A stretch of DNA of 64,000 nt from an uncultured Chlamydiales bacterium (GTDB lineage: Bacteria; Chlamydiota; Chlamydiia; Chlamydiales; JAAKFR01): positions 1,093,327-1,157,326 of the forward strand of contig OY969414.1 in the NCBI GenBank assembly GCA_963699155.1. Reading direction: 5' to 3'. Made by a program: the position numbers. Of the stretch, positions 27,001-39,000 are shown piece by piece (within the stretch, counting starts at the first letter, position 1; each line of letters begins with the position of its first letter).

Positions 27001-30000
27001 CGCTTCTCATGGTTTCCAATAAAGGTTCCCCACATCGCAATATCAAATAGGGGATCTCCATTTAAGGAATCGCCCCAATCAATGAGAATGATTTCATCAC
27101 TCTCTTCTTGGACGAAAATATTTGAGTTCCCTAAGTCGCCATGTAAAAGTTGAGGCGCAGCTGCGCTAAACGTGCTCTCGTGCATGGAAAATAGATTTTC
27201 AATTTGCTGAGCATGGGCTGGTTGAATGATATGGTTATCACAGCAATACCTGATATGCTGATCGAGACATGAGTATAAATGATCCCCCCAAGTTTTTTTC
27301 AGGCCAGAAATTCCAAATCCTTCCATTTTGATCTGATGAACTTGAGCTAACCGTTTTCCCAGCAGGTGGAGCTGTTTTTTGGCGTCCGAAAGGGGATGGC
27401 CCTCTATTTTTTCCATGATCATATAGTCGAAAGGATAGCGCTCACGTGAACAATCGATGTGTGAAATAGAGAGAGTGGGAATATGTGATTTTCGCAATAG
27501 ATCATTAATCTCTCTTTCGCCGGAAAAGCAGGGCTCTGGAAGAAGGCTTGTTTTGATGATGAAGCTTTGATTTCCATCTGTGGTTGCTTCAAATAGGAGA
27601 CAGAATGTGCCCCCTTCTAAAATAGGTCTGAGGTCTATTATGGGGCCGATTTCTGAAGCAGCGATCCTGCTTATGTCAGACAATCTTTTATTCATTTCAG
27701 ACTGTTTCGAATTCAAGAGATGGACTATTTCATCGTTCGAAAGAGCGATGTCAGATTTAATCCAAAACTGAGTCGAGTTAAAGGGTTGCATAGTCAAATT
27801 TTTCGAGCATCAAATGAGAACTCAGCTTGATTTGATTCATCTCCTCCTTTGATAGCCGGCTCATCGTTGCCAGATTTTCTTCAGTTGTTGCCTTGTTCAC
27901 GGTGCCCCAGGGGTAGATGCCACCGCTGATGTCTTTACCATTCCAGGAGGGATAAAGGATTTTGTCGCTAAATTGAATTCCTACGCGCTGACATATGTGT
28001 GAGAGCGTTTTTTTAGGATCAGCCACTAAATCTTCGTAGCGCATGATCGTGATATTCTTAGGAAATTGTTGTTGATGCATCAACACGATATGATGGTAGA
28101 TATTCCAAGAAAAAACATACTGCTTTAGGGGAAGTGGGAAAGGCCTTTTTTTTGTGTCTGCATAGGCTGAGTAGGGATTTCTCACCACATGAACGATATG
28201 AGCATCAGGGAAATCGGTTAATATTTTGTTGGAATCGATACCGATAATCGGAGAATAGCCCACATAAATCCTGTTTTTCCCTGAGAGCTGATAGTTTTCC
28301 CAAGCATCAAAGGTAGAACGGAAGAAGGCTTCTACAAAATTGGCTCGCGTATAGGGTTTTCCTTCCAAGTTTTGTGCAAAATGTCGAATCCTGTTCTCCT
28401 CTTTCATTTTTAAATCGGCATCTTTGAATTTGCTGCCGTTGGGTTTGCGTAAATAAGTTTTAAGCTCTTCGTCATAAAACAGTTCATAAATCTCCTGGGG
28501 AGAGAGTGCTGCAGGAAACTCAGGATAGCGGTACTGAGATCTTTCTAAGGAGGAGAGATAATCGTTGGCATACCGATTACCAATTTGAGATTCAAAAGGA
28601 TAAACATATAATTCTGGATGGCCATCAAGAAAACGATGGGTCACATTACCGCCATGCTCAAACCCCGCAGAAATCATCAGAAGATTAAATTTGTTTTTAT
28701 CCATTAGTTTCTCCCAAGTAATTGAAATTTTGCGGCCAATTTATGCTCTTTCTCTTCATTTGTGCAATCGAAAAAGAAGGAGTAGGCTCTTGACAGGCAA
28801 TCTGTCGAAGATGATAGTGCTAAAGCAAAAAACTGAGGGAGTTCTATGAAATGTGTCATTCTGGCGGGCGGCCTCGGTTCTCGTCTTGCTGAGGAAACCG
28901 ATATGAAACCGAAGCCGATGGTCGAAATCGGTGGCTATCCCATCATTTGGCATATTATGAAAATCTACTCTCACTATGGGATCAACGACTTTATTATCTG
29001 CCTGGGATACAAAGGCTACATGGTAAAAGATTACTTTCTCAGGTACTCAGAAAGGCTGTCTAATCTCACGATCGATCTCAGCCGGAATCTAGTCTCCTTT
29101 CATCAAAATTTATCAGAGCCATGGAAAATTACCTTAGTGGATACAGGAGAGAAAACGTTGACAGGGGGGAGATTAAAACGGATAGCCCCCTACTTAGGTG
29201 AAGAGGACTTTTGCTGCACTTATGGCGATGGAGTGGCAGACATCGATCTTCCTCTTTTATTGGAAGCCCATCGAAACTCTGGATCTCTCGCCACTGTCAC
29301 AGCTGTGCGGCCTCCAGGCAGGTTTGGTGCTTTGGAGTTTTCTGGAAATCAAGTTGTCGGATTCCGTGAAAAACCAGAGGGCGACGGCACTTGGATAAAC
29401 GGCGGATTCTTTGTCTTATCCCCCAAAGTGCTCTCTTTGGTTGAAGATGATTCGACCACTTGGGAACATGAGCCCATGCAAGAGCTCGTCCGAAGTGAAG
29501 AGCTCAATACCTACTTTCATCGTGGTTTTTGGCAACCTATGGACACGCTGAGAGATAAAAAACTTTTAGAAAAGCTATGGGAGGAGGGGGCACCTTGGAA
29601 AGTATGGGATAAAGAGTATGCCCTTGTGGAGACGACTCTATGCTGACACCCACTTTTTGGGCGGATAAACGGGTCTTAGTGACGGGACAAACCGGTTTTG
29701 TGGGATCTTGGCTTTCGATGACCCTATTAGAACTTGGTGCCAATGTTTTTGGTTATGCCCTAGAACCTAACACCGATCCGAACCTCTTTTCACTGCTCGA
29801 ATTAGAAGATCGACTGACCGGACATTGCTTCGGCGACATCCGTGATCTTGACTCACTGAGCTCCTTTTGTGAGCAATCTGCGCCTGAGATCATCATCCAT
29901 CTCGCTGCACAGCCATTGGTGGGTTATGCCTATTATCACCCTGTAGAGACCTTTGAGACTAACGCCATGGGCACTGTCCATCTCCTCGAATGCTTCAAAG

Positions 30001-36000: not shown

Positions 36001-39000
36001 TTCCATATTATAGAATTCGTTGTTCATCTGGTATTCGCGCTCGGGCGGCCGGCCGAAATAGATGACTCTCGGGATTTTGACGTTGCGGAAGAACCATTCG
36101 TCGCGGAAGCTATAGTGGTTGATGCGAAGGAGCGCGTCGTTGACGGGGTAGGTATTGGCTGTGGCCCAGATTTCTTGATGGGAATTGAAGGGGTAGGGGT
36201 TACCTGAACCATCGGAAAAGGGGACAAGACCTGGGATTAAATGTGGATTGGGGACGTAAATGGTACTGAGATATTCGGGTTGAACGATCATTTTACCGAT
36301 TTTGTTGTCGCAGAAGTCGTGCTGGGAGCAGCGGGTGAGGTGGGGAAGGATGAGGCAGGGGGGTGGAAGCGAGATGAAGCTGGTACCGAAGAAGCGCCAG
36401 TTGACAAAGATCAACGGTTTGTAGGCATATTCTTCTTCCAGCGTTTCGGTCAAAGTCTCATATTTCATTGGGACAATAAATTCATCTGTATCGAGGAAAC
36501 TCAGCCATTTTGTTACCCCTTTGCAGCTCTTGAGCGCGTGTGTGTAGGCACCATTTTGTGTCACACCCCATTCGGCAAGAGTGGGCCATTTGACATAGTC
36601 GACAATGCCCTCACGGATATATGGTGCGAGGATTTCATGTGTTTCCTCACCTTCATTATTGTCATAGATATAAAAATGATCGGCGCCGATTAAACGGTGA
36701 TAATCAATCCACTCAGCGATATAGGGATGATCATCTTTGGTTATGGCAGCGATGGAAATATTATGAATGTATTTGACTTGTCCGTAGCAGCTGAAAGTCG
36801 CCAGCATTAACAATAGATAGAAAAGAGATTTCAAGGGTTACCTCAGTAGTAATGGATTTACCTATGCCTCACGAATCGAAGATCTTCTCTTTTTTGCTTT
36901 CTACTGGGGTTTCAAAACCAAATGGCCTACCACCTTTCGCTACAATACGTGCGAGAAACTCAAGGTAGGCACGCTGCGTTGTTGCGATTTGGGTAACCTC
37001 TTTTTTGATTTCGTTTAACATTCTCGCACGCTCTTTTCTTTTTTTTAACCTTCTTTTAATTGCACTTAGCAACTTCATAATTTTCCCTTTTTCTCAAAAC
37101 TATTTTGTTTGGATCGGTGGATAACCTAAAGATAAATTCCTAGACTCCCAGAATTCTTTAAATGCGGCTATATGCATTTCTTTGAACTCATCCTTCCATC
37201 TACCAACCTTTTTCTTGACAGGGTTATATGACCCGCATTTTCCAAATGTTTTTTCAACAGCAATTTTTATCTCATCTACAGATCGCTGATATCCAAAAAA
37301 ACTACAGATATCTGAGAATAACTCAAATCGATCATTATCACATAAATTCCCACCTGCTTCTTGTCCAATAAAATCTTCAAATTTTAGTATTCGAGTAGAG
37401 TGAGGTTTTTCTTTTAAAAGTAGATCCATGAGATCTAAAGAGTATCTAGTATTAGTCATCAGGCCCGAAGCCATACGTTCTGATTTTATTACTTTTAAAA
37501 GCTGTTCGTCATAGGAATCACATAAAAATTCCATGGAATTGATTAGTGCAATATTATGATGCCCATGGGGACTTTCAACTATAGACTGTGCATTTTTTTT
37601 TATCCAAAAGGCAGCCGAAGAGATGCAATCTTTTAAATCTCTTCTTACTATAATAGTTTTTCCAACAAATTGTTCTGGCTTGCGCAGTCTCCATGGATAT
37701 AATTGAATCCAATAAGATCGCGTCAGCTCTGTATCTAATGTAAAATGATCAATAGCCACTTCCATATTCAGCATCTGCATGAGGAGATGTAAATACTGAG
37801 TACCAGATTTAGGAAATGTGACGACGGCATTATCAAGTAAGGGTTTTTCTTGCAGTATTTCTAAGTTCATAGGTAGTTATAGTTTTTGAAGAAGACTTTC
37901 AAGATACCCCGCGTTGCTTAAATAGTCGAGAATCAATTCTAGGCTTTCCTCGAGAGAGTGGCTGTCTGTGTCGATGGTGATTTCGGGATTTTCTGGAATT
38001 TCGTAGGGGTCGTTGATGCCTGTAAAACTGGGGAGCGTTCCAGAGCGCACTTTGGCATAGAGACCTTTGACATCTCGCTGTTCACAGATCTTTAGGGGAG
38101 TGGATACGTAAATTTCGATATAACCTCCTACTTGGGAGATAAGCCGCCGATTTTCATTTCTGGCAGTCCTGTAGGGGGCAATTGCAGCGCAGAGAGCGAT
38201 CCCACCTACTCTGGTGATTTCTGAGGCAACAAAACCGATGCGGCGGACATTTAAGTCACGATGGGCTTTTGAGAAACCCAATTCTGAGCTCAAGAATTGG
38301 CGCACGACATCTCCATCTAGAAGGGAGATTTTATGGAGCCCCATACTCATCAATTTATCTCTGAGAGCTTCTGCAAGCGTCGATTTACCTGCTCCCGAAA
38401 GCCCAGTAAAAAATAAGGTGAATCCCATCTTCTAATCTCCAAAAAGAGAGAATTTATAAAGCGTGTTTATTTTTATTGATAGGCTAAACTTTCTCGATCG
38501 GCTGGAACTGCTGTGAGGAGGGGTCGTAAGCAAACATTTCGGCGGTGGCAATTTTGAAGTACCAGCCATGGAGGCGGAGAGTGCCAGCTTTTAACCGTTT
38601 GGCAACGGCAGGATAGGTGTGGAGGTTTTCCAATGCAAAGAGCACATTTTCCTCGGCGGCTGCATGTAGCTTTTCCTGGTCACTCAGATGGGAATAGTTC
38701 CGTTCTATCAGTTTTTTCACAGGGGAAGCGACGTTGAGCCACTCCTGAAGATGGGGCATGCCGGCCTTTCGAGGCGGAGGTTGAAGAAGAGCTGCCATCG
38801 CACCACACTGAGAATGGCCACAGACAACCAGATCACTGACGCCAAGCGTTTCGACAGCGAATTCAATAGCCGCAGCAGTTGAGTTGGTACTTCCCTTTAC
38901 ATTGGAGGGGGGAACAATATTACCTACGTTTTTGACTACAAAGAGATCTCCCGGCTGGCTCTGCGTGATCAATTCCGCTAAGACACGCGAATCGGAGCAG

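Follow-up and report, generated by a model that had tools for sequence, protein, structure and literature searches.

A putative sulfation gene pair, APS kinase and sulfotransferase, in a mosaic glycan-modification island with signs of decay in an uncultured Chlamydiales bacterium

Background

Does this uncultured Chlamydiales bacterium carry its own means of sulfating a surface glycan? The question is raised by a stretch of 64,000 nucleotides (contig OY969414.1, positions 1,093,327–1,157,326, of assembly GCA_963699155.1), called the window below, in which a gene for an adenosine 5'-phosphosulfate (APS) kinase, cysC (37877–38428, minus strand), lies directly upstream of a sulfotransferase-like gene, ST1 (37100–37870, minus strand). 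To our knowledge, the envelope glycans of Chlamydiae are thought to be simple and unsulfated. An initial annotation had proposed a glycan locus with two sulfotransferases, ST1 and a second gene, ST2 (27778–28704, minus strand), a dedicated supply of 3'-phosphoadenosine 5'-phosphosulfate (PAPS), and a sulfated product. The reading favoured here is narrower: the two genes cysC and ST1 would constitute a module for PAPS-dependent sulfation within a glycan-modification island that is mosaic and partly decayed. We favour it tentatively, with slightly less than even confidence. Family assignments, motifs, fold, gene order, spacing and the conservation of the ST2 cassette are observations on the sequence and its models; co-transcription, catalytic activity, the acceptor and the source of APS we infer.

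An APS kinase gene beside a sulfotransferase-like gene

The cysC product is 183 amino acids long, with the N-terminus MGFTLFFTGLSGAGKST, and is predicted by every sequence test to be an authentic APS kinase, as first annotated. It matches the Pfam APS_kinase family (PF01583) with 194.1 bits against a cut-off of 21.1 (E = 1.8e-57) and clears the curated thresholds for TIGR00455 (205.5 bits, threshold 138.7) and PRK03846 (190.9 bits, threshold 163). The best solved relative is the two-domain APS kinase of Thiobacillus denitrificans (PDB 3CR8; 240 bits, ca. 63% identity), in which chain residues 369–544, the kinase domain, align end to end with residues 2–177 of CysC. The Walker-A sequence GLSGAGKST (residues 9–17) and the LLDGDVVR motif are identical or conservative relative to 3CR8. 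The gene is preceded by a GGAG ribosome-binding site, and its GC content is near the window average, with a GC content at third codon positions (GC3) of 0.46.

Relatives of cysC were taken as the best 80 matches from species-representative genomes. These are 59–65% identical. Their sources are Thiobacillus/Hydrogenophilales and further Proteobacteria, a planctomycete, and a range of other bacterial metagenome-assembled genomes (MAGs); the window's own contig is not one of the 80. None of the 80 is titled as chlamydial, and cysC therefore does not resemble part of a conserved chlamydial pathway. At the two loci inspected (L024 and L075), the part that matches cysC is the C-terminal end of a longer open reading frame (ORF). 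The window's cysC starts one residue ahead of the kinase-domain alignment, and a carbonic anhydrase gene occupies the place of the sulfurylase-like domain. The gene thus apparently represents the excised kinase domain of a Thiobacillus-type two-domain APS kinase, acquired horizontally. The upstream gene encodes a beta-carbonic anhydrase (38484–39116, minus strand; Pfam Pro_CA, 2.7e-48); it ends 55 nt before cysC and is possibly co-transcribed with it. We know of no role for beta-carbonic anhydrases in sulfation.

Between the stop codon of cysC (TAA, 37879–37877) and the start codon of ST1 (ATG, 37870) there is a gap of 6 nt (CTACCT). The adjacency first reported is correct, while the spacing of 7 nt given for it is not. 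No terminator-like site was found between the two genes, in a promoter and terminator scan that performed at chance level. The short spacing, the common strand and the lack of a terminator-like site suggest that cysC and ST1 are co-transcribed. Both ORFs are intact, and every motif residue checked in them is preserved.

ST1 encodes a protein of 256 amino acids, and the two motifs on which its first description as a PAPS-binding protein relied are present: FPKSGTQYL at residues 19–27 and RRDLKDCISS at residues 77–86. Taken by itself, the sequence is a weak match: against PF00685 it reaches 17.9 bits, short of the cut-off of 22; a k-mer-indexed homologue search returned only ST1 itself; and a single-sequence search of the PDB gave no match. 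An exhaustive HMMER search identified 147 relatives, and a family alignment of 40 sequences (A1; ST1 and 39 relatives) was examined. PF00685 is matched by 38 of the 40, with a best E of 1.2e-20. Residues G23, R77, D78, D81, S85, E165 and W225 are invariant in the alignment, and conservation is 90% or higher at P20, K21, T24, G173 and G174.

When the A1 profile was compared with the PDB, 54 sequences matched at E up to 1 (best 4.6e-17), with cytosolic sulfotransferases such as SULT2A1 among them, and every listed match, retinol dehydratase being one of them, is a member of the sulfotransferase superfamily. The family keeps the 5'-phosphosulfate-binding (5'-PSB) loop, the 3'-phosphate-binding (3'-PB) motif and a C-terminal GxWK. 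In ST1 the loop P20-K21-S22-G23-T24 aligns with TYPKSGTNW of SULT2A1, the 3'-PB motif (R77...S85) with RNPRDVLVS, and the C-terminal KKKVGRWK (219–226, including the invariant W225) with RKGVSGDWK. ST1 thus resembles SULT2A1 and SULT1 (PF00685) in its PKSGT loop, its RDxxDxxxS motif and its K/R-x-G-x-W-K motif, at a profile E of ca. 5e-17. It differs from the eukaryotic SULTs in its low identity, in a single-sequence score below the Pfam gathering score, and in belonging to a bacterial family that is mostly leader-bearing. On these grounds ST1 is a credible candidate for a PAPS-dependent sulfotransferase of the cytosolic-SULT type.

An N-terminal hydrophobic leader is found in 28 of the 40 A1 sequences (27 of the 39 relatives), including the four closest relatives of ST1. 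ST1 itself has no hydrophobic segment, and its ORF cannot be extended upstream. The signal-like leaders of the family (relatives P0122–P0184) are odd for a bacterial PAPS-dependent enzyme.

Twenty ST1 relatives were looked up, and the two named entries among them are both Chlamydiales/Chlamydiae MAG proteins. The nearest named homologue of the window's housekeeping transketolase is likewise a Chlamydiales MAG protein, and both results agree with a divergent chlamydia-like source for the window. None of ten window proteins looked up has a relative at 90% identity or higher. The sole other contig found with ST1 is a 14-kb Logan contig, and the 12.3 kb compared is 100% identical to the window.

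If the module works as favoured here, CysC would make PAPS by phosphorylating APS inside the bacterial cytoplasm. ST1, which lacks a leader, is presumably cytoplasmic too; it would move the sulfo group from PAPS to an acceptor hydroxyl in the same compartment. The acceptor would most plausibly be a cytoplasmic intermediate of the glycan or glycolipid that is built by the downstream genes of the same strand, among them a GT92-like glycosyltransferase, a GT90 glycosyltransferase and an O-acyltransferase. The module itself appears to have been put together by horizontal transfer, from a captured kinase domain and a low-GC ST1.

APS supply and the surrounding genes

The module would need APS. No Pfam match to ATP-sulfurylase, PAPS_reduct (CysD) or the CysN GTPase was found among the scanned window ORFs of at least 100 amino acids, and the best E reached in a six-frame tblastn search of the window, for which a Sat-type domain served as query, was 0.19. 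The earlier statement that the window has no ATP sulfurylase is therefore confirmed. The Pfam scans also found no cysH, cysI/J or cysD/N in the window. A search of the literature on sulfate activation in environmental chlamydiae returned nothing relevant. A source of APS is presumed.

The two genes lie at one end of a run of envelope and glycan genes at ~13.9–39.1 kb. This run is compositionally mosaic, with per-gene GC contents of 0.33–0.54 against a window mean of 0.45. The genes surrounding cysC and ST1 are predicted to build or decorate glycans. Downstream of ST1, on the same strand, are a 69-aa methyltransferase N-terminal fragment (36869–37078), a GT92-like glycosyltransferase (35959–36834; Pfam GT92, 6.8e-25), a membrane-anchored protein of 261 aa and no assigned family (34940–35725), a GT90 (CAP10-like) glycosyltransferase (33853–34933; Pfam GT90, 6.1e-20), an O-acyltransferase (32525–33811; Acyl_transf_3, Pfam 6.7e-29) and a protein of 184 aa with no assigned family (31930–32484). 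Several genes of this segment (31930–37078) have low GC contents of 0.35–0.38. They are followed on the plus strand by a Methyltransf_24 methyltransferase (30785–31933; Pfam 8.1e-16).

Two of these genes are damaged. The GT90 gene is split by one frameshift near 34650–34690 into a leader-bearing ORF of 101 aa (34628–34933) and a catalytic ORF of 276 aa (33853–34683). The frameshift is visible in the nucleotide sequence itself, and it is also in the Logan contig, which may derive from the same reads. The 69-aa ORF is paralogous to the N-terminus of the Methyltransf_24 protein (36% identity, E = 3e-13) and resembles a scar left by a rearrangement just downstream of ST1.

The second gene upstream of cysC (39146–40810), which shares its strand, encodes a protein with leucine-rich repeats (LRR) and a C-terminal NEL (novel E3 ubiquitin ligase) domain (Pfam NEL, 6.5e-30; LRR_8, 5e-47). 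This architecture is known from secreted effectors of the IpaH/SspH type.

The ST2 cassette

ST2 matches the Pfam family Sulfotransfer_3 (PF13469) with 55.3 bits (cut-off 27), over its C-terminal half only. Its AlphaFold2 (AF2) model has a pLDDT of 92.2, and in a Foldseek search with this model all 50 listed PDB matches belong to the sulfotransferase superfamily (retinol dehydratase included). The top matches are the CurM sulfotransferase, the tyrosylprotein sulfotransferases TPST1/2 and the OLS sulfotransferase. In sulfotransferases, the loop that joins the first strand to the first helix contains PKxGTT or PRSGTT. In ST2 the loop between the strand at residues 7–13 and the helix at residues 19–26 reads GFE[H/N]GGN, without Lys or Arg; all 30 sequences compared share E16, G18, G19 and N20. 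R175 is also invariant and aligns with the arginine of the VRHP motif (3'-PB) of CurM and OLS-ST. The serine expected eight residues after R175 is D183, and the neighbouring T184 is invariant. A profile–profile comparison of the ST1 and ST2 families aligned the C-terminal part only and gave no register for the donor loops. ST2 may or may not use PAPS.

An array of closely spaced minus-strand genes begins with ST2 and extends to 20801. ST2 is followed by genes for an APH-type kinase (26799–27797), a short-chain dehydrogenase/reductase (SDR) of the epimerase/reductase type (25921–26814), the N half (25122–25958) and C half (24056–24982) of a split transketolase, GtrA (23685–24059), and a GT2 polyprenyl-phosphate sugar synthase similar to PgfS/ArnC (22759–23688), all assigned by Pfam/NCBIfam. 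The run ends with a polytopic membrane protein of 653 aa that matches no Pfam family (20801–22762). Most junctions overlap by 4–38 nt, the exception being a gap of 139 nt between the transketolase halves. Divergent from this run, on the plus strand, are genes for a glucose-1-phosphate cytidylyltransferase (28846–29646; TIGR02623, 414.8 bits, cut-off 300) and a CDP-glucose 4,6-dehydratase (29640–30719; TIGR02622, 450.7 bits, cut-off 278), both of which score as NCBIfam equivalogs. The first annotation was correct in placing ST2 at the head of the 28704–20801 operon, and the Pfam match and fold agree with the family it gave. Its designation as a second sulfotransferase is not upheld, given the loop without Lys or Arg.

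The ST2 family is large, with 3763 homologues, and identities of 55–86% extend across Legionella, Paenibacillus, Ruminococcus and many metagenomes. Co-occurrence was counted at 82 other ST2 loci with flanks as fetched, 44 of which are at least 8 kb long. Within these 44, the transketolase halves are found at 40 loci, the CDP-glucose dehydratase at 38, the SDR at 36 and the cytidylyltransferase at 33. The gene set recurs in Legionella massiliensis (L008) and Paenibacillus ferrarius (L010), and it is the same at the loci of the two closest ST2 relatives (L172 and L173; 84% and 74% identity), where the last gene encodes a GT87 or a YfhO GT-C enzyme. Because the same gene set travels with ST2 across loci, the operon appears to be a mobile glycosylation cassette of the three-component type, serving a modified CDP-6-deoxyhexose. 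Neither cysC nor sat was seen at these four loci, nor at any of the 82 (0 of the 44 longer ones) within the fetched flanks, which leaves room for the use of housekeeping PAPS. On gene content, the ST2 cassette is best regarded as an independent module, separate from cysC and ST1. The proposal of two sulfotransferases in one locus is weakened by the donor loop and by these 82 loci.

In the proposed pathway, the cassette would start from CDP-4-keto-6-deoxyglucose. The split transketolase, SDR, kinase and sulfotransferase-fold protein would alter this sugar, giving a branched or further-substituted 6-deoxyhexose as the predicted product. GT2 would load it onto polyprenyl phosphate, GtrA would flip it, and the polytopic membrane transferase would attach it to an envelope polymer on the periplasmic side. 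No published description was found of a cassette combining CDP-glucose, a split transketolase, an SDR, a kinase and a sulfotransferase-fold protein. As seen in the window and at loci L008, L010, L092–L171, L172 and L173, the ST2 cassette is apparently widespread, highly conserved and uncharacterised.

Two other polytopic membrane proteins are encoded nearby (16716–18749 and 18877–20835, both on the plus strand). They are tandem paralogs, 64% identical, with 9–12 hydrophobic segments, a GC content of 0.33–0.35 and no Pfam match, and may be extra GT-C-like transferases or polymerases.

Weighing the explanations

That cysC and ST1 make up a working sulfation system seems about as probable as its opposite; that their product is an envelope glycan is rather doubtful. 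A number of observations weigh against the sulfation module. Without an ATP sulfurylase in the 64-kb window, the module may lack its substrate. GC3 is 0.28 in ST1 compared to 0.46 in cysC, and the pair was therefore probably assembled from parts with different histories. The pair is in no sampled relative, and the homologue searches, exhaustive HMMER included, found no ST1 homologue more than 46% identical. Those ST1 homologues that could be placed adjoin GroEL, MutS/UvrC or unrelated genes (two of the contigs are named Chlamydiales MAGs); they have no neighbour in common with the window and are never beside cysC or the window's glycan genes. While the consensus His of the ST1 family aligns with the catalytic base in the SSHLP segment of SULT2A1, the sole candidate in ST1 and its closest relatives, H42, is in another alignment column, and its position is ambiguous. 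A single-sequence AF2 model of ST1 is uninformative (pLDDT 37.5). The leaders of the relatives hint at an extracytoplasmic or host-directed role of the family, and the frameshifted GT90 and the methyltransferase fragment show decay downstream of ST1. By its profile matches in the PDB, the ST1 family resembles small-molecule SULTs and not known carbohydrate sulfotransferases. ST1 is SULT1-type, and its solved relatives sulfate small molecules; a sulfated glycan is therefore just one of several possible products. The claims of the initial annotation are reduced accordingly: the glycan-gene context of its sulfated product stands, though the type of ST1 does not favour that product, and the dedicated PAPS supply embedded in the glycan locus is weakened, as cysC is tied to ST1 only and differs from it in GC3, and as the neighbourhoods of ST1 homologues are not shared with the window.

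It is fairly unlikely, though a serious contender, that the module is active on another acceptor – a small metabolite, a lipid, a host-derived or a protein substrate – with the glycan neighbours accidental. The best profile matches to cytosolic small-molecule SULTs would fit such an acceptor, as would the placement of the ST1 homologues outside glycan loci, the exported or host-directed family suggested by the leaders, the LRR-NEL E3-ligase effector gene two genes upstream, and the composition of ST1, which is unlike that of most of its neighbours. However, a leaderless ST1 coupled to a bacterial source of PAPS argues for a cytoplasmic bacterial acceptor, the downstream genes on the same strand encode glycosyltransferases and an O-acyltransferase, and one ST1 homologue (L007) adjoins an epimerase and methyltransferases. 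Decay could also have gone further, to a non-functional remnant in which no APS is made, the leader of ST1 has been lost, the island is eroding and nothing is sulfated. The lack of a sulfurylase in the window, the origin of cysC as a lone domain cut from a two-domain enzyme, the damaged genes next to ST1 and the absence of the pair from sampled relatives are all consistent with this; but both ORFs are intact, all checked motif residues are kept, cysC has its ribosome-binding site, and sulfurylase genes are commonly elsewhere in bacterial genomes. A remnant of this kind is judged quite unlikely.

Two further explanations change the role of cysC. It might serve housekeeping assimilatory sulfate reduction, in which APS is turned into PAPS and CysH then yields sulfite, its position beside ST1 being fortuitous. 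A GC content near the window average, unlike that of ST1, and a position on the same strand behind a housekeeping-type beta-carbonic anhydrase would suit this role, which is nevertheless improbable given the window's lack of cysH, cysI/J and cysD/N in Pfam scans, the absence of chlamydial titles among the best 80 matches, and the 6-nt spacing to ST1. Alternatively, the CysC-like kinase might act on another nucleotide donor in a non-sulfate modification. Cj1415, of the Campylobacter O-methyl phosphoramidate (MeOPN) pathway, is a CysC homologue. Together, Cj1415–Cj1418 of C. jejuni make CDP-phosphoramidate 3'-phosphate (PMC11800397). The window does have a cytidylyltransferase and methyltransferases, but the former is a glucose-1-phosphate cytidylyltransferase equivalog, and cysC passes the equivalog-domain cut-off for APS kinase and is ca. 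63% identical to a characterised APS kinase domain (PMC13213808). No Pfam domain expected of a Cj1418-type glutamine kinase or a Cj1417-type hydrolase was found in the scanned window ORFs. A cysC of the MeOPN type was rejected on the equivalog score, this identity and the partner genes not found in those ORFs; it is the least probable of the explanations, and very improbable in itself.

A more speculative combination would join both gene sets: a captured APS-kinase domain using host-derived APS for envelope sulfation, without any ATP sulfurylase, and beside it an ST2/APH-type kinase couple working with a donor other than PAPS. That couple would possibly decorate a transketolase-branched CDP-6-deoxyhexose. 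Taken jointly, this is a long shot.

Comparison with known systems

Rhizobial NodPQ/NodH and LpsS are systems with sulfated products and PAPS genes of their own. A further such locus is the capsule cluster of Vibrio sp. KMM 8419, which has cysNDC and three sulfotransferases; sulfation of this capsule has been proven by chemical means (PMC11641403). The window shares with it an APS kinase gene beside a sulfotransferase gene among glycan genes, and with them the logic of a locus-specific PAPS supply. In contrast to the Vibrio cluster, the window has cysC only, with no cysD/cysN or sat; its sulfotransferase is of the cytosolic-SULT type; no Wzx/Wzy or Kps genes were detected in it; and the host is chlamydia-like. 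Sulfation was shown chemically in the Vibrio strain, whereas the system in the window is known from its genes alone.

The two-domain APS kinases of T. denitrificans (3CR8) and Entamoeba histolytica (PDB 23vk) have a sulfurylase-like N-terminal domain that is catalytically inactive (PMC13213808). The window's CysC aligns over its whole length with the kinase domains of both (240 and 199 bits) and keeps the nucleotide-binding motifs. Unlike them, it has no sulfurylase-like domain, and a carbonic anhydrase gene lies upstream.

ST2 has the fold of CurM-ST and OLS-ST (PDB 4GBM, 4GOX) and of the tyrosylprotein sulfotransferases (Foldseek E = 8e-9, TM ca. 0.56–0.61). Its C-terminal half matches CurM-ST/OLS-ST by profile (2e-7), and the 3'-PB arginine, R175, is kept. 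It differs from these enzymes in the loop, which has no catalytic Lys/Arg, and in being always paired with an APH-type kinase in a CDP-sugar cassette.

Three-component glycosylation systems, made up of a GT2, a GtrA flippase and a GT-C enzyme, decorate teichoic acid, cell-wall polysaccharide and O-antigen (PMC13390465). The ST2 cassette likewise has a PgfS/ArnC-like GT2, GtrA and a downstream polytopic membrane protein. It departs from these systems in its sugar, which would be derived from CDP-glucose via the split transketolase, SDR, kinase and sulfotransferase-fold protein. Where the ST2 relatives end in GT87 or YfhO, the window's 653-aa membrane protein has no Pfam match.

As it stands, the cysC–ST1 pair amounts to a gene-content prediction of a familiar type, APS kinase beside sulfotransferase, in an unusual host. 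If the module works, it would mean endogenous PAPS-dependent sulfation in Chlamydiae; if the reading with host-derived APS is true, it would be the first sulfated chlamydial surface structure, and a sulfated surface could mimic the sulfated glycans of the host. The SULT-like family with Chlamydiales MAG members, mostly leader-bearing, and the conserved CDP-sugar cassette with its sulfotransferase-fold protein, kinase and split transketolase are both open to test.

Other features of the window

A formylglycine-generating enzyme (FGE) and a sulfatase are encoded ca. 11 kb from cysC and ST1. The FGE gene is at 49207–50181 (minus strand; Pfam FGE-sulfatase, PF03781, 1.4e-79), and the formylglycine-type sulfatase gene at ~50351–52033 (plus strand; Pfam PF00884, 3.7e-53), its start probably being the Met codon at ~50351 and not the TTG at 50075. 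The sulfatase has the formylglycine motif CTAGR, and both proteins have hydrophobic N-termini. The presence of these genes at 49207–52033 had been taken as a hint at turnover of sulfated substrates. The genes are there, but those in between – the NEL effector gene, an HlyD/OEP/MacB/ABC efflux system, an ATPase and the housekeeping transketolase – are unrelated, and the link to the sulfation module is weak guilt by distance at most. Adjoining the sulfatase is a non-homologous end-joining pair, Ku and LigD (ligase and primase-polymerase; 52836–55363, plus strand).

Envelope-assembly genes seen in the window include those for the GT2, GtrA and polytopic membrane protein of the ST2 cassette, for an MsbA-like ABC exporter (13947–15896), and for the GT92 and GT90 enzymes. 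Domain scans of the window ORFs detected no Wzx/Wzy/Wzz or Kps families, and scans of the window for Rfam families and tRNAs gave no hits.

At 8758–10446 (minus strand) is a TauC/SsuC-type ABC permease fused to an NMT1/SsuA-like substrate-binding domain. All of its matches are below the NCBIfam cut-offs; the fusion may import a sulfonate, taurine or a related compound. An AbiEi/AbiEii type IV toxin-antitoxin pair lies at 7271–8676 (plus strand). At 4523–6990 (minus strand), a histidine kinase gene precedes one for a response regulator that carries a GGDEF diguanylate cyclase domain. Towards the other end of the window, a GDE-type (amylo-alpha-1,6-glucosidase) glycogen debranching enzyme adjoins an alpha-amylase-family protein (56456–60417, minus strand), and a beta-barrel porin of the BBP7 family is encoded at 62392–63489 (minus strand).

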